Both the position numbers and the translations under genes were made by a program. The notes under the pieces are model-generated. The model made no database searches. It saw nothing but the letters and a program-made list of their open reading frames with translations, and was not told the origin of the DNA. From Gammaproteobacteria bacterium (GTDB taxonomy: Bacteria > Pseudomonadota > Gammaproteobacteria > Tethybacterales > Persebacteraceae), in NCBI GenBank assembly GCA_965221835.1, contig OZ244916.1, positions 654,477-718,476 of the forward strand: a stretch of 64,000 nucleotides of DNA, given 5' to 3'. Within the stretch, counting starts at the first letter, position 1. Each line of letters begins with the position of its first letter. Positions 1,940 through 44,035 of the stretch are shown one piece after another.

Positions 1940-2834
1940 TTATTTTAACCAATCTTCCAGCGTTACGCCCCAACTTTTCGGCGGCGTTTCGGCGGATACT
2001 TCAAAATCGGAAAAAGAACGCGGCGGCGCGGCGGCGTTTTTGCGCGCTACTTTTACCAAATCAAATAACTGATGCGCCGGTCTGTTGCCGAGTTTGCCAT
2101 CGTGCTTAAAAACATACAAACCGCGGACGGACATCATCCCGCGCGCCGCCGAACGGTCGTGTTCAAACATATTCCGCAACGCCTCCCAAAACAACGCCAA
2201 ATCTTCATCGGAAAAACCGATCCGCCGCCAAATGCGCCGAAATAAATCCGTGCGCGCGATACAGCGAATATGGAATCGTGTGCTTCCGCCCCATCGTCCG
2301 ATTGTCGCCGCTTTGTTTTTGCGCCTCCTTTTCGGTGGTGACCGCCATCCGCGTAATGGAATGTTCCAGCGAAACAATCGGCGCAACCGAACGCGCAAAA
2401 GTCATCTGCACCGGTCCGCGCACCTGTCCGCAATTGACGCCGGTGGACATCACCGCGCCGAAAGTGCGAATGTCGTAAAAATTGCCGCACATCCATTTGC
2501 GGAGATTTTTCGGTTCCCTTTCCGTTTTTGTCAACGCGTCATGGGCGCGCTGGTGTTGATTGTTCAGCACTGCCTTTTCTTTTACATAAATTTCATGGCG
2601 CGGCGACTCGCCGATTTTATAACTCTTCGGCTTGCCGTCCGCTTCGTCTTCCGCAAACTTCATTTCCACATAGTTGCGAATTTTGCGTTTCAGGCATACA
2701 TCGGTTACCAGCCCGTCGCCGGTTTCCGCGTCTATGCGCGGGTGATTTCCCGCATCGGGGTCGCCGTTCGGATTGCCGTCCAGCACATCAAAAAGCAATA
2801 CAAAATCATGCCGGTTTTGGATGGGATTATTCAT
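1940..2834 (-). pseudogene. cas7: Type I-C Cas7 (Csd2) with a broken reading frame. The N-terminal 209 aa and the C-terminal roughly 90 aa lie in different frames.
   Basis: The N-terminal part, [56 protein letters not shown], is a classic Csd2 start. That frame stops at 2205 after [15 protein letters not shown] second frame covering 2398 to 1940 carries the expected continuation, [27 protein letters not shown]...LFDLVKV. The junction lies near 2218-2226 in the sequence gcggcggatcgg. A strong RBS (aaggag) precedes the ATG at 2834. Confidence 0.7.
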
Positions 2835-4590
2835 TGTTATTCTCCTTTTTTGTGAAAAAATTCTGCCGCTGATGATAGTAGCCGAGGGCAAACAGCCCCT
2901 GCTCCTGCATTGTCAGTTGCGGCGGGAAATTGGCGAGTTTGCACATAATTTCGCCGACGGTTTTTTGGCGATTGACGGCAAGCCCGGGTTTGGCGTCTTT
3001 TAGTTTACTCAGATGGTGTTGGTGCAATTTTATCAGCGCGGGAAATGCCGCACCCGGCGACGATGACGCCGCACCGTAATAGCGGTCGCGAATGGTGGCG
3101 TTTATGCCGGGATTCGCGTCTTCTTGCAATTTTTCCAGCGCGGCAAACAACGCGCCCAGCCAATACCCCGGCGATTTAACTTCCGGATCCAGTTTCATAT
3201 CAATCTCCTTGTTGAGTTGCAAAGCGGGCGGCAATTGTTCCGCCCGATAAAATCGGTTTATGCAACCGCGCAAAAGCGCGGCGCGGTCCGGCGAAACATT
3301 TTCGCGTCGTTCCCCGTATTTTACGCCCGCGCGGCAACGATTGACCGCCGCCAGAAATGCCGTGCGCGGATACGGCGAATTTTGCAATATCGCCTGCATC
3401 ATTTCGCCGCCCAAATTGGGCGGGATATTGTCCGCCTTGCCTTGCACCGCCGTGGCAACCAGCAAACGAAATAGCCCCGGCGGGCGGGAGTCGTCCGCGC
3501 CGTCAATTTTAATGTCGTCAAAATGCCGCCGAATTCTTTCCGCAACATCTCCTACCGTTCCGTCGTGCCAAAAACGCACCGTCAACCGCACGCGATTCGC
3601 CCACAATCCCAGCACATAAAACGGCAAATCGCCTTCCGCGGCGTATGTTTTTCCGCTTCGGGGCGATTCGTACAATTTTTTCACCGCGGCAGTCCGGCGG
3701 TCGGGATTGTCTTCGGATGCGCCGCCAAATAAAACGCTAAAATCGGTTTCCAGTAGCGCGTCCTTTCCCGCCCAAAACACGGCGGTAGAATCGCCGACCT
3801 TGATTTTTTGTTCGCCAGTCAGCAGCATATTTAACGCGGCGGTGTATTTGTACATTGTCGCTTTTCCCACGGACGCATTTTTTGCCTTTGTTTTGCCGTA
3901 CGAATTAAACGCCGATTGCTTAAACGCGATAACTCCCGCGCCCGCCCCCGCACCGTTCACGCCGCGCACCGCGTTGTGCATATCCGGTATTTCGTCTTCG
4001 TCTCCGGAAATAATGCACCGTCCGTCCGGTTTCGCCGCCGCGCCGACATTTCGTTTTATTTCCGCCGCAACCGGCGGCGAATCGGAAACTATCGCATAAT
4101 CCGAATTTGCCAACTGAAACGACAAATACGCCAGACGCAAACGTTCATCACAAATTTCCGCCCACATCGGATCGCCGCGCACCGCGTCCATATCGGGATT
4201 TTGCAGAAACGCGACAACCGCGCGAACGCCCGAATCTTCGGCGACACTCTCCGGAATTTGCGTTTGTATTTTCCGCAAAAAACTTTCGCGGCGTTTTTTT
4301 GATACGGCGGCGGATGTGCCGCCGACTCCGAAAATATATTCCAAATTGTCGTACAATAAATTCGGATTTATCGCGCTTCCGCCGCGACACGACGGTTTAA
4401 TTGCAACTCTAACCGTATACTTCCCGCCGCGGTCTTTCGCATCGGCGCGGGTATCCTTAAAACCGGCAAACTCGCCGCTTTCGTTCAACACAATCAAAAA
4501 CGGAATTGGTTGATGTTCAAATCCCAGCGGCGGCATTTCGCCGCGCAACATTTTGCGGTCGTAATATTCCGTCAACGCGCGAACAGTCAT
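2827..4590 (-). CDS. cas8c: Type I-C Cas8c (Csd1) large subunit.
   Basis: The 587-aa translation begins [41 protein letters not shown], matching Csd1. It is positioned between cas5c and cas7, as in a canonical I-C operon. Confidence 0.85.
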
Positions 4591-5237
4591 TTGCGAATTT
4601 CCGCGCTATCGGGCGGCGGCAGATGAATCACGCCGTTTTGCATTTTCGCCCGAAACATCATCGGTTTCATTTCATCGGCAAAATCAATGTCGTACAACAT
4701 AAATCCCAAATCGCGGGAGTCGTCAATCGCCGCCCGTGCCGCCGCTTTCGTTCCCGGCGTTGCCAGACAAAACGCCGCCGAAAATTCGCGACATCCCAAA
4801 TACGGCTGATTAAAACACTGCCCTTTTTCCGCCCGCCGCGCAAATATTTCGGCGAATTTAACAATGCCGTCGCCCTCGCCCGCCTTGTCGGTCAATTGCA
4901 ACCGCGCATGCAAACGATACGCCACATCGCGCAAAAACAATCCCGCCCGCTGTTGCCGGTCTTCTTCCACATAAATTCCGCAACCCGCTTTGGACGGCGG
5001 ACGCGCAACACTCCCCACTTCGTTGCGGCGAAGATTAATCCACCGAATCGGTTTTAGTACTTCAATTTTTTCGGGAATCCACCTGATTGCCGGTTTCCAC
5101 ATAATCGCCTCAAAAATCGCCCGCGCCGCGGACGGAGTCATCACATCATAAGAAACGCGTTCCACTTTCATTTCCGGGCGCGTAAAGCAGGCAAAATCGC
5201 CCCAAACTTTCAGGCAAAAAGACGGCGACGATTTCAT
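4587..5237 (-). CDS. cas5: Type I-C Cas5c (Csd5d), the pre-crRNA-processing Cas5.
   Basis: The 216-aa translation contains FCLKVWGDFACFTRPEMKVERVSYDVMTPSAARAIFEAIMWKPAIRW, the Cas5d signature. Its stop overlaps the cas8c start by 4 bp. Confidence 0.9.
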   Translation of the reverse strand: MKSSPSFCLKVWGDFACFTRPEMKVERVSYDVMTPSAARAIFEAIMWKPAIRWIPEKIEVLKPIRWINLRRNEVGSVARPPSKAGCGIYVEEDRQQRAGLFLRDVAYRLHARLQLTDKAGEGDGIVKFAEIFARRAEKGQCFNQPYLGCREFSAAFCLATPGTKAAARAAIDDSRDLGFMLYDIDFADEMKPMMFRAKMQNGVIHLPPPDSAEIRK

Positions 5238-5245
5238 AACCGCGA

Positions 5246-7510
5246 TTATACTCCGCCCCGCCCGGGAATCGCAAACCCCGTTTCGTCCGAATAATTCGCC
5301 GCGCCCGATTCCGTCAGCACAAAAACGCCCGCCGTCAATTCTTCTATTTCGCCGCGACCGCGCATTTCGTCAAAATCTTTTTCCGGCACAGAAACCGAAA
5401 ACCGTTGCAACCCGCGCATCGTTGCACGCAAACGCGCACCTTCCGCCATCTGCAACGTTTTCCGCATTTTTTCGGAACCGGTATACCAAACGATAACCGG
5501 AATTTTTCCGTCTTCTTCAATAAACCGGAACTTCGCCGCCGCATCCCGAAATTGCATCTCGTCCGAACTCAACAGCCGGGAAATTCCTTTGTCATCAAAA
5601 TTGCGAATATCCCGATACAACAATTCAAAATAGCGGCGAAACTTGTCCGGCGTAAACATATCGTCGTCCGCGGCGAACAATTGCCGCATTTCTTGCACGA
5701 CCTGCCACCCCTGACGGATAAAACCCGGCGGCGGTATTTTCGGCGGCATAAACACGCGCAACTCGCCGCCGTCCGGCAATTTTCCTTCGCGGTTGCATCT
5801 TCCCGCCGCCTGCGCAATAGAATCCAATCCCGCCAGCGCGCGCCAGACGACCGGAAAATCAATATCCACGCCCGCCTCTATCAATGTCGTACTGACGACA
5901 ATCACTGGTTCGTTATTTTTCAATCGCGCCTTGATTTTTGCAATTTGTCGCGCGCGATGTTCGCCGCACATCAGCGCGGACAAATGAAAACATTCGGCGG
6001 CACCCCGTCCGATTGCGGACATTCGCGCCTTCGTTTTTTCGTACAAATCGCGGCACTCGTTCCGGCTGTTGACGATGCAAAGCGCGGATTTGTTTTCGCA
6101 AAGTTTTACGGCGATTTCGTCCCATTCCGTTTTTGACAAATCCCAGCGCGCGCGTACGCGCCGGAATTGGTCGCGGCGGAACAATGTTTCCGGCTGTTCG
6201 CAAACTTCGCGCGGCGCGCTGTTCAACGCCGCTTTCGCTTTCCGCAACGATTCCGCCCGAAACGCCGGTTGCGTAGCGGTGCAAAAAACAAAACTCGTTT
6301 TGTAAAACGCCGTCAATTCTTCAATCGCCGCCAAAGTCGGCGCGATCAATTCCAGCGGCAACGTTTGCGCTTCGTCCAAAATAACGACCGAATCGGCGAT
6401 GTTATGCAGTTTGCGACATTTCCCCGGCGCGGCGGCGAAAAGCGATTCAAAAAATTGCACATTCGTCGTAATGACAATCGGTGCGTCCCAATTTTCGGTT
6501 GCCAGCCGATTTTTGTACGCCGCGCGGCGCGCCTGTTCGTCTTCGGATTCTTCGCCGCGAATGTTGGAATGATGTTCCACGACATTGTCGTCGCCGAAAA
6601 CGCCGCGAAAAATATCGGCGGTTTGTTCAATAATGGAAGTGAACGGAATGGCGTAAATAATTCGCCGTTTGCCGTGCGCCGCGGCATGCGCCAGCGCGAA
6701 CGCCATGGACGACAATGTTTTGCCGCCGCCGGTCGGCACCGTGAAACTGAACAATCCCGGCGACTGTTCGCCCGCCGCAACGCATTGCGTCAAAATGTCG
6801 GCGCGGATTTTGTCAATCGCCGTTTTTTCCGCGTCCGTCTTAAAACCTTTCATATAGCCGTCAAACTTTTCGCGCAACGCGGAAATTTCCGCATAATCGC
6901 CGCGCACCGGCGGAACAGGCGAAGAAGATTTTTCCGCATGCAACCGGTCGGCATCCACCAAACACGAAAACAACATTCGCGTCCACAAAGAAAGTCGAAT
7001 CCAAGAAGGGGCGTTTTCATGTCCGGTGTTGCGGCGCAAACACGCCAAACCGGGAATTGTCGCGTTGCGCACAAATTCGGGAAAATGTTTCTCGTTTTTG
7101 CGCGCCTTATCCAGCCATTCGCCTTCGCGGAAAATTCGTTCTTCCAAACTCGCGCCTTTCGCATCGCCGTCTCCGCAATTCGGCAAGCCGGTGTGATGTC
7201 CGAAAATGACAAACGACAACAACTTCGCCGCGCATTTTTCTTCCGCATTTTTTGCGAGAAAGTTTTGCGCGTACAATCCGCCCGCCGAGGAATGTTTAAT
7301 TTTTCCGCGCGGCGCATTAATTTCGCCGCGTAAATATTGTTGAAACTCATCGCCGTATTTGCCGAGGTCGTGCAATCGCCCCGCCAACGTCGCCCATTCT
7401 TTCGCGCCAAAAACGGCGGCAAATCCTCCCGCATTTTTACCGACCGAATTTAAATGTTCCGCCAAATCGCATTTGGTGTTTTCGGAAAAATGCGAAAAAA
7501 ATGTTTTCAC
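5246..7510 (-). CDS. cas3: Cas3 HD-nuclease/helicase with a GTG start.
   Basis: The 754-aa translation has an N-terminal HD domain (HDLGKYGDEFQ), a Walker A motif (VPTGGGKT) and a DEAD-like VILDEAQ motif. The GTG start lies 4 nt after the mpl stop codon. Confidence 0.9.
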   Translation of the reverse strand: MKTFFSHFSENTKCDLAEHLNSVGKNAGGFAAVFGAKEWATLAGRLHDLGKYGDEFQQYLRGEINAPRGKIKHSSAGGLYAQNFLAKNAEEKCAAKLLSFVIFGHHTGLPNCGDGDAKGASLEERIFREGEWLDKARKNEKHFPEFVRNATIPGLACLRRNTGHENAPSWIRLSLWTRMLFSCLVDADRLHAEKSSSPVPPVRGDYAEISALREKFDGYMKGFKTDAEKTAIDKIRADILTQCVAAGEQSPGLFSFTVPTGGGKTLSSMAFALAHAAAHGKRRIIYAIPFTSIIEQTADIFRGVFGDDNVVEHHSNIRGEESEDEQARRAAYKNRLATENWDAPIVITTNVQFFESLFAAAPGKCRKLHNIADSVVILDEAQTLPLELIAPTLAAIEELTAFYKTSFVFCTATQPAFRAESLRKAKAALNSAPREVCEQPETLFRRDQFRRVRARWDLSKTEWDEIAVKLCENKSALCIVNSRNECRDLYEKTKARMSAIGRGAAECFHLSALMCGEHRARQIAKIKARLKNNEPVIVVSTTLIEAGVDIDFPVVWRALAGLDSIAQAAGRCNREGKLPDGGELRVFMPPKIPPPGFIRQGWQVVQEMRQLFAADDDMFTPDKFRRYFELLYRDIRNFDDKGISRLLSSDEMQFRDAAAKFRFIEEDGKIPVIVWYTGSEKMRKTLQMAEGARLRATMRGLQRFSVSVPEKDFDEMRGRGEIEELTAGVFVLTESGAANYSDETGFAIPGRGGV

Positions 7511-11738: not shown

Positions 11739-12251
11739 ATGCAAAAAAATATGTCCGAAATGCGCGCGCGATTTCGCCGCTATCTATCTTCGCTTTTGCT
11801 TGCAGAATTGTGCCGGGGAATGGCGCTGACTTTCCGGCAGATGTTCCGCCGCAAAATCACCGTGCATTTTCCCGAAGAAAAAACACCGCGCAGCCCCCGA
11901 TTTCGCGGACTGCACGCCTTGCGCCGCTATCCGAACGGCGAAGAACGATGCATCGCTTGCAAATTGTGCGAGGCGGTTTGTCCGGCGATGGCGATTCATA
12001 TCGCTTCCGAACAACGCGAAGACGGCAGCCGCCGCACTACTCAGTACGACATTGATTTAACCAAATGCATTTTTTGCGGAATGTGCGAAGAGGCGTGTCC
12101 CGTTGATGCAATTGTAGAAACGCATGTTTTGGAATATCACGGCGAACGGCGCGGCGATTTGTACTACACAAAAGAAATGCTGCTCGCCGTGGGCGATAAA
12201 TACGAAGCGGAAATCGCTTCCGCCCGCAAAACCGATGCCGCTTATCGCTAA
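11739..12251 (+). CDS. nuoI: NADH-quinone oxidoreductase subunit I (2x[4Fe-4S] ferredoxin). It is isolated from any nuo operon.
   Basis: The translation contains [31 protein letters not shown] and [18 protein letters not shown], and is near-identical to NuoI over its full length. A TATAAT box lies about 20 bp upstream. Confidence 0.85.
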
Positions 12252-14418
12252 ACTTTTCCGCGCAACGGCGGCGGCGATTGTTCTCGGCATATTGTCGCCA
12301 TCTTTCGCCGAACCCGTCTCGGCGTATTCGCCGGAAAAAGAAATAGAAGAATTGGAACAGCGGTTTGTGCGCCAAGAAATTCTCGCCTTGCAGCGGGTGG
12401 AAGATGTGGAAACGCGGATTGAAATATTGGACCGCCATTTCAATCGCGTTTTTTTGATTTTGGGATTATCGGCGGCACTTGCGTTGATGCTTTTCGCCGC
12501 CCATCAACGCAGTCGCAATCGCTTAAATACCGAACGCTTAAATCGTGCCGTGCGCGAAGCCGATATGTTGCGAGACGATATTCGCCGCGAATTGCATCGC
12601 CCGGAAACGGAGTTTTTGCGCATCGGACATTTTTTGCGAAGAATGATGCGCGAATCGCTGGACGCCAAACCCGCCGAACGACATTTTTCGGAAATTCGTG
12701 CCATTATTCGCGACCCTAATGTGCCGGTGTCGCTGCATTATATGGCGCAAATTTTGCTTTTTGAACACGATTCGCGTTGGCGAGATGCCGAACATGTTTT
12801 GGAACAACTTCGGCAAATGGATCCCGAAGATCCTTTCGTACTTTTGCATTTATTTCATGTACATACCCGCATTTCCGAAGGTTCGGGCGATTCGTACGAC
12901 CGCAAACGCCATCGTCAAACCGCAAATCAATACTACGCCCAATTTGCAGTTATCGCGCAAACAAAAGACATTCCCGCCTCTCCGGCAACGGCGAAAAAAT
13001 CCCCGCCCGCCCCGAAAACGCCGCCCCCGGCAATTGCCGCCGCCGAATCCGAATCCGAAAACGCTTCCAAAACTGCCGAAAACGATTCCGAATTTGATTC
13101 CGAATCCGCCGCCGAAAACATTACCAAAAACGCCGCTGAATCCAAATCCAAATCCGCCGCCGAATCCGAATCCAAATCCGCCGCCGAATCCGAATCCGAA
13201 TCTGCATCCAAAATTGCCGAAAACGTTTCTGAATCTGATTCCGAATCCGTTGCCAAATCCGCCGCCGAATCTAAATCCAAAACTTCCGAAAACGTTTCTG
13301 AATCTGATTCCGAAAACATTGTCAAAAACGCCGCTGAATCCGAATCCAAATCCGCCGCCGAATCTAAATCCAAAACTTCCGAAAACGTTTCTGAATCTGA
13401 TTCCGAATCTGCTTCCGAAAACATTGTCAAAAACGCTGTTGAATCTGAATCCAAAACTTCCGAAAATGTTTCTGAATCTGATTCCGAAAACATTGCCGAA
13501 AACGTTTCTGAATCTGAATCCAAAACTTCCGAAAAAGATTCCGAAAACGATTCTGAATCTGAATCCGAATCTGGTGCGGAAGTGCAAACGAATATTTCCA
13601 AACCGCAATCGGAAATTGTGCATACAAAACCCGCGCAATCGCCGCCGGTTAAAACCGAATTCGCTCCTCCTCAAATTGTACCGCCCAAACCGCCGAAAAC
13701 GGCGGAAACAAAGCCCGCTCCGAAAATGCCGCCGTCATTGCCGTCCGCCGCAAACGGCAAAAAACGTCCCGCCGAAAATTTATTAATGAAAAAAATCGGC
13801 AAACTATCATGGCGGGGAATCGGCGGCGCAATCAAAAACAAAACCGTCAATTTAATCGGCGAAGCAACGAATGTTGCCGGAAAAATTAACAACGGCGCGA
13901 ACGGCGACATCCCGCCGTTTTTGCCGGTGCCCGCAATTTCCGAATTGCCGGAAAAAAAAGGAACGGCAGAAAGCGAAATGTGGAAATGCATTCGCGCCGG
14001 TGATTTGGCAATGGCGCAAGCCGCCGCAGTTGCGAATATGCGTCATCGCAATCGTTTGATAGACCGCGCGTTAATTTCTTATGCGCAAGCGCAAGGACAC
14101 AAAACTAACGAAACTTTGTATTTGAATTGGGGATTGTCTTTGCTCGGCAAGGCGTTGCATTTGCCGCTCAAAAAACGCGAACCATTTTTTAATGCCGCCA
14201 TAGATAAATTTTTGGCGGGCAATGTTATCAGTCCGCACCGTTTTGATTTTTCGCTGGCGACTTTATACGCTATCATCGGGCGCGAAACCGAGTGCAAACA
14301 ATGGCTTGCCACAGCGCGCGAATCGGGAACGCTGAATTTGGAATCGTTGCATCATGCGCCCGATTTTGACGGCGTGCGCAATCAGCCGTGGTTTGCCGAA
14401 TTCATGCGCGACGAATGA
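12235..14418 (+). CDS. Hypothetical membrane protein. It has an N-terminal signal/anchor, a coiled coil, a second transmembrane segment, an acidic Ser/Glu-rich tandem-repeat region, a Pro/Lys-rich linker and a C-terminal helical (TPR-like) domain.
   Basis: The 727-aa reading starts at the ATG at 12235, overlapping the nuoI end. Hydrophobic segments [14 protein letters not shown] and [18 protein letters not shown] are present. Repeats of the form [31 protein letters not shown] recur. A proline-rich stretch, [28 protein letters not shown], follows. Confidence 0.6.
13020..13600 (+). repeat. Imperfect in-frame tandem repeats of roughly 69-bp units, encoding Ser/Glu/Lys-rich acidic repeats.
   Basis: The motif gaatc(c/t)gaatccaaa(a/t)c... 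recurs many times. Antisense and alternative-frame ORFs here are artefacts of this repeat: 12698-13786 (PNPNPP-rich) and 12850-13674 (GFGFGG-rich). Confidence 0.8.
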
Positions 14419-20290: not shown

Positions 20291-20398
20291 TAAAAAATTT
20301 TAAATTAACGAAATTTTATTTATTTCGCCAAAGCGAACCGTTTTTATGATTTTGCAAAATCGGTTAAAATAGTGTTTTTACTTTTCGGAGAAATATCA

Positions 20399-21046
20399 AT
20401 GAAACTCAAAACTATTCTTTTCCCGCTTTTCGCCGCCGCACTGATGACGGTTGCGCCGTCTACATTCGCGCAAACCAAAGAAAAGAAAGCAATTGCTGCC
20501 CCGTTCGGTCTCAAATGGGGACAGTCCAAAGACGAAATTCGCGCGTTGGGCGTGAAGTTTGGTATCGTTAATATTTTCGGTTTCACATCTACTGATAAAT
20601 GTACCGATGAAGGCGCGTACGAATATTGTATTACAAATTCGCTTCCCAAAAATATAGAGAATGTATATTTCTATCGCCTTACGATTAATCCGAAATACGG
20701 GCTGATAGAAGTGTATTATGAATCCGAGAGTTTCGTTAACGATTCGTATGGGACGCACGGAAAAGAAGCATATCAGCGGATAAAAGATTTCATATCCGCG
20801 AAGTACGGTGCGCCGATATCAGAAGAATATGAGGGAGGAACAGAACTTTCCTCTAATAAATATTTTTATGAATGCTTGGAAAATGAAAAATGCGGACAAT
20901 GGCGTTCTGATTGGGAGGGAACTAATGACGGATTCATTCAACTTCGGCTATATCCCGAAAGCGATGACGGAGGTTCATTATCATTATTTTATGTTTCGCC
21001 CGATTATTCCAAAGCGGAAAATGAACACGCGGCGGACGCTTTTTAA
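20399..21046 (+). CDS. Hypothetical secreted protein. The gene is noticeably AT-rich.
   Basis: A signal peptide, MKLKTILFPLFAAALMTVAPSTFAQ, is present. An RBS (ggag) and an AT-rich promoter region lie upstream. There is no recognisable domain. GC content is lower than in flanking genes. Confidence 0.6.
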   Translation: MKLKTILFPLFAAALMTVAPSTFAQTKEKKAIAAPFGLKWGQSKDEIRALGVKFGIVNIFGFTSTDKCTDEGAYEYCITNSLPKNIENVYFYRLTINPKYGLIEVYYESESFVNDSYGTHGKEAYQRIKDFISAKYGAPISEEYEGGTELSSNKYFYECLENEKCGQWRSDWEGTNDGFIQLRLYPESDDGGSLSLFYVSPDYSKAENEHAADAF

Positions 21047-23218: not shown

Positions 23219-23652
23219 TGTATATCCGCAAAACCTTGATTCGTTTTGCGGGCGTTTCGGCGGCGGCGGCGGTTTTCATCGCCCTCGCCGGTTGCGCGAC
23301 TCCGCATGTCGTAGACGAGATAAAAATATCCGACCGCGATTTAAATTGTGACGCGCTTGATTCCGAAATTCGGAAATCCCGGGAACATTGGAGAACCGCG
23401 GAAAATGAACGGGAATCAACAACCGCGTCTGTTGTTTTTAACGGCATACTTTTTCCGCCGATGTTTTTGTTTTTGCCCGCCTCTATCGCTCTGGATAGCG
23501 CGAGCAATTCCAACATTGAAGAGGCGAAAAACGCCGCAAACAAACGGGAAGCGCATCTTCGGGATTTGTATAATAAGAAAAAATGCAATGAAAAAAAGGC
23601 GCGCGATGCCGAACGCACTTGGCCGACAAAAAATTCGAAAGAAGGGGAATAA
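23218..23652 (+). CDS. Small lipoprotein, paralogue 2.
   Basis: The ATG overlaps the upstream stop (TAATG). A lipobox (IALAGCATPHVVDEIKISDRDLNCDALDSEI) is present. The N-terminus is homologous to the upstream gene. Confidence 0.65.
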   Translation: MYIRKTLIRFAGVSAAAAVFIALAGCATPHVVDEIKISDRDLNCDALDSEIRKSREHWRTAENERESTTASVVFNGILFPPMFLFLPASIALDSASNSNIEEAKNAANKREAHLRDLYNKKKCNEKKARDAERTWPTKNSKEGE

Positions 23653-23667
23653 TTTGCCTTTTCGGAG

Positions 23668-23714
23668 GCAACAAAAACCGGCGGGGATTCCGTTTCCCCG
23701 CCGTTTTTTGTTGC
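23668..23714. terminator. Bidirectional intrinsic terminator. It is identical to the hairpin at 11544-11582.
   Basis: The sequence GCAACAAAAACCGGCGGGGATTCCGTTTCCCCGCCGTTTTTTGTTGC forms an extended palindrome with A/T tracts on both sides. Confidence 0.7.
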
Positions 23715-24077
23715 ATTCGTCTCCCGATTCCATTTCCGCCCAATTTATCATTCCCGCGAACGCGGGAATCTATTATGAGAGACAAATTCGCGCTTTCACC
23801 TCGTTTTTTGCGAAAAAATGCGGAAATTTCAAATTTAATTTTCGCATAAAATTCGCGGGAATTTCAAACTTAATCTCCCTTCCCGCTTTCGCAAGAATGA
23901 CGAATTTTTTTCGTTCGCAAACGCGCGAATCTCTGCGCAAACAGTGGAAATTTTTGTTTCGCGGAATTTTCTTGGTCTTTGCAAATAAAAAAATAACGAA
24001 AACGTTTTTCGGTTTTTTGGGAAATTAAAAAAATTTCCGTTTTTGTCAAAAAACACGAAAATGCCGAAAAAAAATCG
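23715..24077. repeat. NIME-like repeat block made of dRS3 (ATTCCCGCGAACGCGGGAAT) and RS-like units.
   Basis: ATTCCC-N8-GGGAAT elements are present. RS-like units (gaaatttcaaatttaattttcgc...) are shared with the array at 56658-57776. Confidence 0.7.
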
Positions 24078-27956: not shown

Positions 27957-28046
27957 CGGAGAGAGGGGGATTCGAACCCCCGAAGGGAGGGAAACTCCCT
28001 TAACGGATTTCAAGTCCGCCGCATTCAACCGCTCTGCCATCTCTCC
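27957..28046 (-). tRNA. tRNA-Ser (anticodon TGA).
   Basis: On the minus strand the sequence reads GGAGAGATGGCAGAGCGGTTGAATGCGGCGGACTTGAAATCCG..., with a long variable arm and a GGGGGTTCGAATCCCCC T-arm. The acceptor pairing is GGAGAGA/TCTCTCC. Confidence 0.85.
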
Positions 28047-28076: not shown

Positions 28077-28152
28077 GCCGCCATAGCTCAGCCCGGTAGA
28101 GCAGCTGATTTGTAATCAGTTGGTCGGGAGTTCAAATCTCTCTGGCGGCACC
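28077..28152 (+). tRNA. tRNA-Thr (anticodon TGT).
   Basis: The sequence GCCGCCATAGCTCAGCCCGGTAGAGCAGCTGATTTGTAATCAG...GGGAGTTCAAATCTCTCTGGCGGCACC folds as a cloverleaf. U33 and A37 flank the TGT anticodon. Confidence 0.85.
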
Positions 28153-42121: not shown

Positions 42122-43555
42122 TCAGAAACGATGAATCGCGTTTATTTGGAATCTGGCGTTTTCGGTGAAATCTTTTGCGTTTTCCCAGCGGAATCCGGCG
42201 GAGGGGAGAATCGTCCAGCCGTCATAACGGAAATTGCCTTGCAGATTTAACTCGTTGCGAGTTTCCGTTTCGCCTTTGTCATATTCGGAGTGCAGGCGAT
42301 AGACGGGGGAAAACATCATTAAACTCCCGTCTATATCCGCCGACAGCATAAATGAGGAGTTAGCCGTCTCGCCTGCAACGGATTCGGAAAATGCCGCTGT
42401 AAATAAATCGCCGTTATATTTTCCGCCCGATGTGTAGCGGAAATCACCGAAATCGCCGTTTGCGTTTGTTTGTTTTGCGGTGTAATACAAATGCCAATTG
42501 TCTTTGCGGAAATCCGCCCGTCCGCCGACATTTGCGTAATAGCCGCTTTCGGTTATGGAATAGCCGAAATCGGGCGACATATTAAAAGACGGAACGCCGC
42601 CTGCCAAAAATACCGCTATCACTCCGACAGCCAAAAGTCCGGTAGCGGTATTGATAGATTTTACCCTTCTCTCCTTATTATCCGCCCGATTTTGCGGTGT
42701 TTGCGTTGTCGGATTTTGCGTTTCCGGCGGATTAGTTCCCGTTTCCGTGTTGCCGTCTTGCGGATTTTCCGTTTCCGTGTTGTCGTCTTGCGGATTTGTT
42801 TGACAAATTCCGGCGTCGTCTCTTGTTTCAGTATCCAAACATGCGTCTACGCAAACGCCGTTAACAAAATCGGGAGTCGCCCCCGGGCAATCGGCGGCGG
42901 ATTCAATTGCACGGCAAGAAAGTCCGCCTGTTTCCAAAATCGGCAATTCATCGGTTGCACATTCGCATGCATCGCCCGCCTCGTTTAAGTTTGCAGTCGT
43001 GCCATCGCAAAAATCGGTTTCAATTATCGTATCGCAAGTTGTCGTTCTTCCCGCATCCGCCGCCGTGAAAGTAAACACATCGGTCAGCGGGATAGCATTT
43101 TCGGTTATATCCCGTGCAACGACAAGACAATCGCAGTTTGCGGGATCTGCACACTGATTCATTGCATGTGTGTGTGCCTCTGCTGCGGTGTCGCCTAGTC
43201 CCTCAATAGTTGCTACATCTCCTAAATTGGGTATGGATAAATCTGCATAAACGGCAAAATATTCCTCACCATTAACATTTCTTGCTACTGCTGAACAAGT
43301 ACTAGCAGTATCAGGATGAGATTGACATGTTAAAGCTGAATGAGCTACTGCAAGACGTTCCGTTTCTCCCATAACCTCCTCTGCAGGATAGCCGACAGCA
43401 ACACCGATAATAAGTATTGTTGGGTCTGGGCTGCCCGGACTAAAATCAGTATCAAATCCGGCAGTAGCAGCCCCTTCTGCATTTGCGGAAATGTTAGACA
43501 ATCCCGCCGCAAAAAAGACGGCGGCGATGATGATTTTATTGATTGTGTTTTTCAT
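42122..43555 (-). CDS. Hypothetical secreted or surface protein. It has a signal peptide, a Cys/Asp/Thr-rich central region, and a C-terminal region rich in aromatic/Gly beta-strands that ends in RF, which is outer-membrane-barrel-like.
   Basis: The start is at MKNTINKIIIAAVFFAAGLSNISANA with a strong RBS (gaggag). The C-terminus, ...FRWENAKDFTENARFQINAIHRF, has a terminal Phe. The listed 632-aa ORF over-extends into the upstream repeat array. Confidence 0.6.
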   Translation of the reverse strand: MKNTINKIIIAAVFFAAGLSNISANAEGAATAGFDTDFSPGSPDPTILIIGVAVGYPAEEVMGETERLAVAHSALTCQSHPDTASTCSAVARNVNGEEYFAVYADLSIPNLGDVATIEGLGDTAAEAHTHAMNQCADPANCDCLVVARDITENAIPLTDVFTFTAADAGRTTTCDTIIETDFCDGTTANLNEAGDACECATDELPILETGGLSCRAIESAADCPGATPDFVNGVCVDACLDTETRDDAGICQTNPQDDNTETENPQDGNTETGTNPPETQNPTTQTPQNRADNKERRVKSINTATGLLAVGVIAVFLAGGVPSFNMSPDFGYSITESGYYANVGGRADFRKDNWHLYYTAKQTNANGDFGDFRYTSGGKYNGDLFTAAFSESVAGETANSSFMLSADIDGSLMMFSPVYRLHSEYDKGETETRNELNLQGNFRYDGWTILPSAGFRWENAKDFTENARFQINAIHRF

Positions 43556-43684
43556 GGTTTTGCTCCTCTGATTAAAAATGTCTGCGAAAGTATAACACAT
43601 TCCGCCCGAATCAACAAAAAAACGGGCGGGTTCGGCAAGAAATGCGTAAATTGCTGATTTCCCGCCTTTTTTCTGCATTTCCGT

Positions 43685-43936
43685 GCGTTCGGAAATGTTT
43701 TCAGAGCGTTCCAAAATGTTTTCAGAGCGTTCGGAAATGTTTTCAGAGCATTCCGAAAAGTTTTCAGAGCGTTCGGAAATGTTTTCAGAGCATTCCGAAA
43801 TGTTTTCAGAGCATTCCGAAATGTTTTCAGAGCGTTCGGAAAAGTTTTCAGAGCGTTCGGAAATGTTTTCGGAGCGTTCGGAAATGTTTTCAGAGCATTC
43901 GGAAATGTTTTCAGAGCGTTCGGAAAAGTTTTCCGA
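43685..43936. repeat. Twelve tandem copies of a 21-bp unit (GCGTTCGGAAATGTTTTCAGA and variants), 130-380 bp upstream of the 42122-43555 gene.
   Basis: The units are head-to-tail with an exact 21-bp period and minor variants (gcattccgaaat, gcgttccaaaat). The ORFs 43642-44052 and 43683-43967 are translation artefacts of this array. Confidence 0.9.
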
Positions 43937-44035
43937 GACCTCGCAAAACATTTGCGGGGTTTTGTGAACGCCCTTTTTTGCCGAAAATTTTCGGCTGTGG
44001 TACAATTGGCATTCGCACATTTGGAATTGAAATTA

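Follow-up and report, generated by a model that had tools for sequence, protein, structure and literature searches.

In the 64,000-nt stretch of the gammaproteobacterial contig OZ244916.1 analysed here (in the following, the window), an intact gene of 477 codons is located on the minus strand at positions 42122..43555. According to our best interpretation, it encodes an autotransporter-like protein for surface display, which has a new anchor and belongs to a modular, phase-variable family, and we assign to this reading a probability of roughly 0.55. The anchor at the C-terminus is an orphan domain, and the family was not described previously. The rating is not higher because a stop-transfer-like helix, the Cys-rich passenger and a charged face of the predicted strands weigh against surface display. 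For the window protein we infer the location in the outer membrane (OM), the closure of the barrel, the path of the helix and the exposure at the cell surface.

The ATG start codon (43555-43553) is preceded at a distance of 8 nt by the Shine-Dalgarno sequence GAGGAG. The mechanically predicted open reading frame (ORF) extends to position 44020, and the added stretch comprises only a translated array of 21-bp repeats and the promoter. Since the orthologues also start at MKNT and since the extension corresponds to translated array, 42122..43555 was taken as the gene, in line with an earlier note that had been made on this DNA from its sequence alone. That note had also proposed a signal peptide. 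Indeed, the protein begins with a Sec-type signal peptide (MKNTINKIIIAAVFFAAGLSNISANA, followed by EG), in which a basic n-region and a hydrophobic core precede A-N-A, and which is kept across family members with differing passengers. The CxC/CD motifs described in the note are present (among them CDC, CEC, FCD and CVDAC), but the protein contains 14 and not about 12 Cys residues, all of them between residues 77 and 251. The predicted acidic, Asp/Thr/Asn/Pro-rich linker corresponds to a T/N/P/Q acidic linker at residues 256-292; at the DNA level this spacer holds a 30-bp x2 tandem duplication (42739-42797). In the C-terminal part, for which an alternating beta-strand pattern ending in AIHRF had been noticed, the two-residue periodicity is strict over the last ~155 aa. 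The hydrophobic Gly-rich helix, the 21-bp array at 43678-43937 and the membership in a multigene family go beyond the previous description. No second family member was found within the 64-kb window, and no protein identical to the 477-aa or the 632-aa form was found in the contig index.

Orphan family and its passengers

Comparison of the whole protein with Pfam, NCBIfam and PDB sequences yielded no match, and two anchor profiles and 52 individual anchors gave sub-threshold matches only, in agreement with the novelty claimed in the earlier note. A search of the protein database gave 149 relatives, which are devoid of Pfam domains with the exception of two proteins with ankyrin repeats. Most of the relatives can be aligned over the last ~36% of the window protein only, with 50-85% identity. 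They have different N-terminal parts and lengths of 280 to 820 aa, and often several of them are encoded on one multi-megabase contig. An exhaustive search of 1.84 billion cluster representatives with a profile built from 19 anchors resulted in 241 clusters, 197 of them below 1e-10. In all of the 150 matches listed from these 241 clusters, the module is located at the extreme C-terminus. Family proteins are 150 to 7188 aa long, with passengers of ~150 to ~7000 aa, and Sec-like N-termini are present in 128 of 224 full-length members. In nearly all cluster members, a Gly/Ala-rich hydrophobic segment of 17-20 residues directly precedes the C-terminal domain, and the proteins end with ...R-[RDEN]-[FL] or, in distant members, with ...INYSYRF.

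The family was found only in uncultured Gammaproteobacteria. In GTDB r232 with one genome per species, it is confined to two 'sea cave' gammaproteobacterial metagenome-assembled genomes (MAGs), one of which harbours at least 55 family loci; the clue to the habitat is the name ('seacave') of the relative's MAG only. The window represents a strain variant of ENA ERZ25072152 ctg52285 (circular, 1,999,211 bp), with 100% identity of ProA and 99.1-99.2% identity of the flanks, and the closest named ProA proteins, those of Reinekea and Suttonella, are 56-58% identical. In sister genomes, a gene for a 2718-aa inverse autotransporter (IAT_beta; L060 1-1464, minus strand) is located near one family member, and an rve/HTH transposase gene (L063 5069-6019, minus strand) near another. 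Otherwise, the family genes occur one by one between housekeeping genes (rpoD, hisS, trp genes, purM). Gene callers mis-start many family genes, either via repeat arrays or after out-of-frame tracts, and therefore several database entries of the family are truncated or extended.

The N-terminal domain of the window protein consists of two helix-Cys-x(5-9)-Cys-strand repeats, ...AHSALTC...TCSAVAR and ...THAMNQC...NCDCLVVAR, the two lobes containing C77/C87 and C135/C141/C143. For residues 99-148 AlphaFold2 (AF2) predicted a beta-beta-alpha-beta lobe, in agreement with how the DUF4189 fold has been described for M. tuberculosis Rv1813c (bioRxiv 10.1101/2021.01.31.428746). The window protein itself is below detection with Pfam DUF4189 (PF13827), and profile-profile comparison was weak. 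For DUF4189, the family members P0118 and P0180 exceed the Pfam threshold, and P0010, with the N-domain type of the window protein, reaches 17.5 bits at a cut-off of 25; 10 of 71 distant members match this domain. We regard the N-domain as a probable two-lobe disulfide domain of a divergent DUF4189/Rv1813c-like type. For the following Cys-rich module of the window protein no match was found in Pfam. Other passengers in the family contain ankyrin repeats or Cys-rich repeats of the TNFR-like, Ephrin_rec_like, NCD3G or cEGF type. Behind the same signal peptide there are at least three unrelated N-domain types, and the type of the window protein is present in ten relatives.

A lower GC content had been claimed for ~43150-43555, and our calculation confirmed that the composition of the gene is not uniform: GC is 0.43-0.47 over 43100-43600, compared to 0.49-0.53 in the rest of the gene and 0.53 in the window. 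The contrast is much stronger at the third codon position, where the GC content (GC3) rises from 0.28 in the N-domain via 0.42 in the Cys region to 0.54 in the anchor. When compared to 638 sliding windows of 139 codons from 39 other ORFs (mean 0.559, standard deviation 0.057, minimum 0.338), the GC3 of the N-domain is the lowest. This most extreme value in the window, together with the differences in both intergenic flanks between near-identical strains, could be taken to mean that the low-GC part is recently acquired foreign DNA and that the gene is an accidental fusion or a pseudogene. We consider this highly improbable, because the orthologues in three other genomes have intact frames and the same contrast (GC3 of 0.33-0.36 in the passenger and 0.51-0.56 in the anchor), the ten relatives mentioned above share the N-domain type, the anchor is under strong purifying selection, and the promoter has been conserved along with the Shine-Dalgarno sequence and the signal peptide. 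A recent horizontal transfer of the low-GC N-domain was also rejected, since the orthologues have the same low GC3. In the family as a whole, GC3 is lower in the passenger than in the anchor at 33 of 45 loci.

Comparison with the sister strain (L061) revealed that gltB and proA-trkA-trkH are 99.1-99.2% identical and that the gene is 93.8% identical with 11 gaps. Between these near-identical strains, non-synonymous (dN) and synonymous (dS) divergence are raised in the passenger only (dN 0.084, dS 0.115, dN/dS 0.73), when compared to the anchor (dN 0.0047, dS 0.059, dN/dS 0.08) and to proA (dN 0.0021, dS 0.032, dN/dS 0.06). The amino acid changes are grouped in patches, a 7-aa indel is located in the spacer, and both intergenic flanks of the gene differ. 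Thus, the comparison of alleles across strains that the earlier note had proposed uncovered a patchily diverging passenger next to a purified anchor.

The paralogue P0070 (L063) has an unrelated passenger, but shares two blocks with the window gene: the one from -367 to +81, with array, promoter, Shine-Dalgarno sequence and signal peptide, shows 91.8% identity, and the one that starts at +1082 and ends ~120 nt behind the stop codon shows 82.5%. Between the two shared blocks no nucleotide similarity was found. In addition, L060 shares the anchor (89.5%) but not the N-domain, while L059 shares the N-domain (77%) and has an anchor with an identity of only 72%. Conserved 5' and 3' blocks around unrelated passengers and such discordant similarities are the architecture expected for cassette exchange. 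Together with the rise of dN and dS in the passenger only, they support, at the sequence level, recombination between paralogues as the source of the mosaic passenger suggested in the earlier note.

Homopolymer tracts and upstream region

Gene calls such as MKPTTNQ...QIVKGGGGGGYNS pointed to leader tracts at the DNA level. In the clade of the window gene, some members possess an extra leader ending in a coding poly-G tract, which is in frame in L060 (G19, ON) and out of frame in L059 (G20, OFF) and at L062 (G15, OFF), where a paralogue from the genome of the window neighbours rpoD. In the sea-cave MAG, a 5' tract of 12-15 nt was detected at 40 family loci. With L059 and L060 included, tracts of 10 nt or more occur in the leader at 42 of 59 family loci, and nearly all loci lacking a tract simply lack upstream sequence. 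The tracts occur in two types of cassettes. The first, SD-ATGAAAATCACTG-C(12-15), where SD is the Shine-Dalgarno sequence, leads to a Pro run four codons after the start, and the second is a leader ending in K-G(13-15). Among the poly-C loci 8 are in frame and 17 out of frame, and among the poly-G loci 7 are open and 10 closed. At the 5' end of one family gene (L042 493-564, MAG_seacave_91), a run of 72 C is followed by TT and 13 C; this is either an extreme expansion of the tract or an error of the assembly.

The window gene itself has no leader homopolymer tract, and no G/C run of at least 9 nt exists anywhere in the window. The only simple repeats near this gene are the 21-bp array upstream of it and a T7 run by the -35 region. 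Thus, a homopolymer tract that may switch the reading frame is a feature of most paralogues and not of the window gene, which represents a third type of 5' cassette, with the 21-bp array followed by the promoter. The array is located ~125-380 nt 5' of the ATG and gave 12 matches, while 0 were expected by chance. Together with the downstream promoter, it also precedes P0070 in L063, where it is present in 15-17 copies. In the sister strain and in L001, a ~120-bp x2 element similar to repetitive extragenic palindromic (REP) sequences is found in place of the array.

The promoter contains an extended -10 region, TGT-TATACT (hexamer at 43594-43589), and the Shine-Dalgarno sequence is located at 43568-43563. 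The core promoter is kept in L061 and L063. It was not called by a consensus promoter scanner because of its weak -35 region. At the presumed -35 position (43605-43611, minus strand) there is a T-run, which is T7 in the window and in L061 and T8 in the L063 paralogue (~2742-2749); this difference could be a second, promoter-level length polymorphism. No convincing intrinsic terminator was found 3' of the gene on its own strand.

The REP-like elements of ~120 bp contain the inverted repeat ATTCCCGCGAAAGCGGGAAT, which resembles the dRS3 repeats of Neisseria. They were found at L001 5583-5834 and 7842-7895 and at L061 1860-2321 and 3935-4167. In the sister genomes they flank the orthologous gene on both sides, and they are absent at those sites in the window. 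The gene and gltB are separated by an intergenic stretch of 155 bp in the window versus ~570-590 bp in the sister genomes.

C-terminal module and topology

The full-length AF2 model had a predicted local distance difference test score (pLDDT) of 50 overall and of 70-88 in the passenger core. For residues 290-477 a cleaner alignment was used and the best model reached a pLDDT of 69. In this model, a helix (294-317) is followed by ten antiparallel strands of 9-16 residues, which are connected by two-residue turns. Structure prediction with AlphaFold, which the earlier note had named as a check, thus delivered the helix and the ten antiparallel strands. Along the beta domain, aromatic/aliphatic columns of the alignment alternate strictly with polar columns. 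Of 227 members, 192 have Phe as the last residue and 221 an aromatic residue or Leu, and the end of the window protein, RFQINAIHRF, brings a C-terminal aromatic residue onto an amphipathic last strand, a feature of the beta-signal. Cys residues account for 4.25% of the passengers and for 0.05% of the anchors. The sub-threshold Pfam matches of the anchors all point to OM barrels (Phenol_MetA_deg in 2+2 members, best 3e-4; Porin_10; MipA), while a Foldseek search with the full model against the PDB gave no match at E<0.1. The barrel-like C-terminus proposed in the earlier note is supported by the predicted strands, the terminal Phe and the weak matches to OM barrels; the closure of the barrel we infer.

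The helix in front of the beta domain has the family consensus I-G-G-G-x-x-x-V-G-x-x-A-[YW]-[FY]-L-S-G. Among 117 distinct versions the mean Kyte-Doolittle (KD) value is 2.05. Upstream of these helices there are 0.99 K+R per 15 aa, whereas the downstream flank has 0.22 and is acidic.

We propose that the protein would cross the inner membrane with the help of its Sec signal peptide and that the C-terminal module, guided by its aromatic, beta-signal-like end, would then insert into the OM and form a small barrel of ~10 strands. If the beta domain is indeed an OM barrel, strand 1 starts on the periplasmic side, and the 19-residue helix before it would cross the membrane and put the spacer and the passenger outside. 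This Gly-rich hydrophobic helix, which would have the position of the linker helix of autotransporters, would span the OM inside the barrel or against it. The spacer and the disulfide-rich passenger would be located on the cell surface and may act there as a variable binding or recognition module. The eukaryote-like or recognition domains found in passengers of the family (ankyrin, TNFR-like, Ephrin_rec_like, DUF4189) were counted in favour of display.

Several points weigh against this model. The predicted fold rests on one model of intermediate confidence, since the other four AF2 models of residues 290-477 have a pLDDT of 37-46, and the placement of the helix relative to the sheet has a pLDDT below 50. 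Mean-field direct coupling analysis (DCA) of 123-150 non-redundant anchors, aimed at the pairing of strands 1 and 10, was dominated by gap and phylogeny artefacts at an effective number of sequences (Meff) of 71-97. On the face of the strands that would be turned to the lipid the columns are unusually aromatic, while charged residues abound on the opposite face; this pattern would likewise be compatible with a soluble barrel that encloses a hydrophobic helix. A 19-residue segment of this hydrophobicity is normally a stop-transfer signal in the inner membrane. Further, classical autotransporter passengers are poor in Cys, since periplasmic disulfides block their translocation, and the passenger described here contains 14 Cys. 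The assignment of loci as open or closed depends on the length of homopolymers, which is error-prone in assemblies. Last but not least, the only functionally studied Gram-negative DUF4189 protein is periplasmic (bioRxiv 10.64898/2026.05.09.723464).

The last point would fit an OM barrel with a passenger facing the periplasm, which would be similar to OmpA in reversed domain order and could bind, for example, hostile secretion tips or phage components. As a precedent, the periplasmic DUF4189 protein XAC2611 binds VirB5 and thereby blocks the attack by a type IV secretion system (bioRxiv 10.64898/2026.05.09.723464). Disulfide-rich domains fold in the periplasm, and an even number of strands would leave the N-terminus of the barrel on the periplasmic side. 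However, this arrangement leaves no role for the conserved 19-residue hydrophobic helix, which is unable to sit in water, and the periplasm is an implausible place for passengers that reach ~7000 aa. In addition, dozens of phase-variable paralogues and a dN/dS of 0.73 are typical of exposed proteins. A periplasmic passenger therefore appears rather unlikely to us.

The hydrophobicity of the helix (KD ~2.0) would be sufficient for integration into the inner membrane. This could result in a bitopic protein with a periplasmic Cys-rich ectodomain, a transmembrane helix and a cytoplasmic beta domain, comparable to a eukaryotic type I receptor. The Cys distribution would fit an oxidising outside and a reducing inside, two members weakly match the glycine-zipper tail anchor DUF883_C, and some relatives have TNFR-like ectodomains. 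Still, we regard this topology as improbable, because the positive-inside rule is violated by the enrichment of K+R upstream of the helix and because the aromatic last residue, usually Phe, is conserved. The terminal strand is beta-signal-like, and the giant passengers and the phase variation argue against an inner-membrane location as they do against a periplasmic passenger.

The curvature of the sheet in the AF2 model would fit barrels of 16-26 strands, so that two or three copies could close a ring. The C-terminal module might thus be a subunit of an oligomeric barrel or pore, for which the shared barrels of trimeric autotransporters are a precedent (PMC9289746), or a released module that inserts into a target membrane, with packed Gly-zipper helices; indeed, GxxxG-like Gly spacing is conserved in the helix. 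No coevolution signal was obtained (Meff 71-97), and AF2 often leaves barrels open when alignments are shallow (Meff ~70-100); we see little probability in such an assembly. The features of the gene and its upstream region are summarized in Table 1.

Table 1. Coordinates of the gene parts and upstream elements in the window.
Feature	Position	Strand	Remarks
21-bp tandem array, 12.4 copies	43678..43937	-	Tandem Repeats Finder score 408; gene-strand unit ACATTTCCGAACGCTCTGAAA
Conserved promoter and 5'-UTR	43556..43677	-	Read directly from the sequence
Signal peptide, aa 1-26	43478..43555	-	A-N-A cleavage motif of the signal peptidase I type, without lipobox
N-terminal passenger domain, aa 27-165	43061..43477	-	GC3 0.28
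Cys-rich module, aa 166-255	42791..43060	-	9 Cys; stacked short beta-hairpins predicted, AF2 pLDDT 73-88
Low-complexity T/P/N/Q/D/E spacer, aa 256-292	42680..42790	-	
Hydrophobic Gly-zipper-like helix, aa ~300-319	42599..42658	-	Kyte-Doolittle ~2.0
All-beta C-terminal anchor domain, aa 320-477 and stop	42122..42598	-	158 residues, ~10 amphipathic strands predicted, without Cys, end RFQINAIHRF

Relation to known systems and other elements of the window

Judged from its primary structure, the protein lacks the defining sequence and size features of secretion types Va, Vc and Vf (PMC9289746) and of the Opa proteins. The earlier note had described an autotransporter- or Opa-like layout. The layout was found as described, but membership in these families was not: there is no match to PF03797 or Opacity, only ~155 aa and ~10 predicted strands make up the C-terminal domain, and Cys residues are frequent in the passenger.

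In common with type Va autotransporters (NalP, AIDA-I, Hbp), the protein has a Sec signal. However, neither the protein nor 19+33 anchors matched PF03797 at E<=10, and the barrel of type Va proteins has ~250-300 aa and 12 strands (PMC9289746), in contrast to ~155 aa and ~10 predicted strands in the window protein. Moreover, the linker helix of type Va proteins is amphipathic, whereas the helix described here is strongly hydrophobic and Gly-rich, and their passengers are Cys-poor and mostly beta-helical, whereas the passenger with its 14 Cys is predicted to consist of alpha/beta structure and hairpins. Type Vc proteins possess a YadA-like anchor (PF03895) with 4 strands per chain and a coiled-coil stalk, while the window protein has no Pfam match and ~10 predicted strands per chain.

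The family resembles the Hop adhesins of Helicobacter (BabA, SabA, HopQ; proposed type Vf), which are large paralogous OM families with a small barrel and a disulfide-containing ectodomain, with conserved ends and variable middles, and with recombination among paralogues. The on/off repeat tracts in the region encoding the signal peptide, described for oipA (PMC10564699), are a further similarity. On the other hand, the Hop passenger is a loop between strands 1 and 2 of an 8-stranded barrel, so that 7 strands are C-terminal to it (PMC9289746), whereas in the family described here no conserved strand follows the signal peptide and the next conserved block is the helix before the barrel. There is no sequence similarity between the two families, and their hosts belong to different phyla.

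The Opa proteins of Neisseria are also a multicopy, phase-variable OM family with repeats in the leader peptide as switches. Like the window protein, they end with a motif of the ...H-[KR]-F kind, in which the last residue but one is basic. Opa is an 8-stranded barrel with variable loops and without separate passenger, spacer or helix, while the window protein has an N-terminal passenger of 290 aa and no match to Opacity, OMP_b-brl or OmpA_membrane in Pfam. Unlike in Opa, no coding repeat exists in the window copy, and no Neisseria DNA uptake sequences of any dialect were found in the 64 kb. An assignment of the DNA to Neisseriaceae, which the ...HRF end of the protein and ATTCCC-N8-GGGAAT-like repeats in L001 had brought to mind, was rejected on account of the missing uptake sequences and of the ProA identity of only 56-58% to the closest named proteins. 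Finally, the known DUF4189 proteins (Rv1813c; Xanthomonas XAC2611/Tpf) are small and soluble, whereas in the window protein the domain is fused to a putative membrane anchor.

Should the anchor prove to be of the kind that its features indicate, it would be a compact module for export and display outside all curated families and an addition to type V-like secretion. This would raise the mechanistic question how a hydrophobic helix and a Cys-rich cargo pass the inner membrane and the periplasm. More tentatively, and with clear doubts on our side, the helix and the ~155-aa beta module might constitute a new minimal type-V-like OM translocator and anchor for disulfide-rich passengers of 150-7000 residues. 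The family, with at least 55 copies in one genome, would then be among the largest known contingency families with homopolymer switches and would generate combinatorial surface variation in a marine lineage, which is probably associated with hosts or biofilms. Here, exchangeable cassettes are found in uncultured environmental bacteria together with leader-tract switches that number dozens per genome, while such systems are known mostly from pathogens (Neisseria, Helicobacter). In applied research, the module of 180 residues with its very diverse passengers could be useful for engineering of surface display.

Some elements in other parts of the window are worth mentioning. A CRISPR array at 1250-1905 consists of 10-11 repeats of 36 nt (GTTTCAATCCACACCCGCCCAAATGGACGGGTGAAT) with a period of 65-66, and it is adjoined by type I-C cas genes on the minus strand (2827-7510), namely Csd1/Cas8c (2827-4590), Cas5d (4587-5237) and a Cas3-like helicase (5246-7510). 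An ORF of 764 aa at 12124-14418 (plus strand) has no Pfam match, a hydrophobic N-terminal region and a local GC3 of 0.34. It contains a long acidic, Ser/Glu-rich coding repeat with periods of 24, 69 and 105 at 13037-13564, and the DNA of this repeat has the motif GAAAAC(A/G)TTTC(C/T)GAA in common with the non-coding 21-bp array. Further ORFs with a GC content below that of the window (0.53) are located on the plus strand at 20372-21046 (0.42, no Pfam match) and at 23348-24028 (0.44). Two divergent tRNA genes were detected by Rfam at 27957-28046 (minus strand) and 28077-28150 (plus strand). Finally, (GCC)n-type 10-mers such as CGCCGCCGCC occur at least 40 times in the 64 kb, which suggests a strong bias of the window to Ala-rich/GCC coding repeats.

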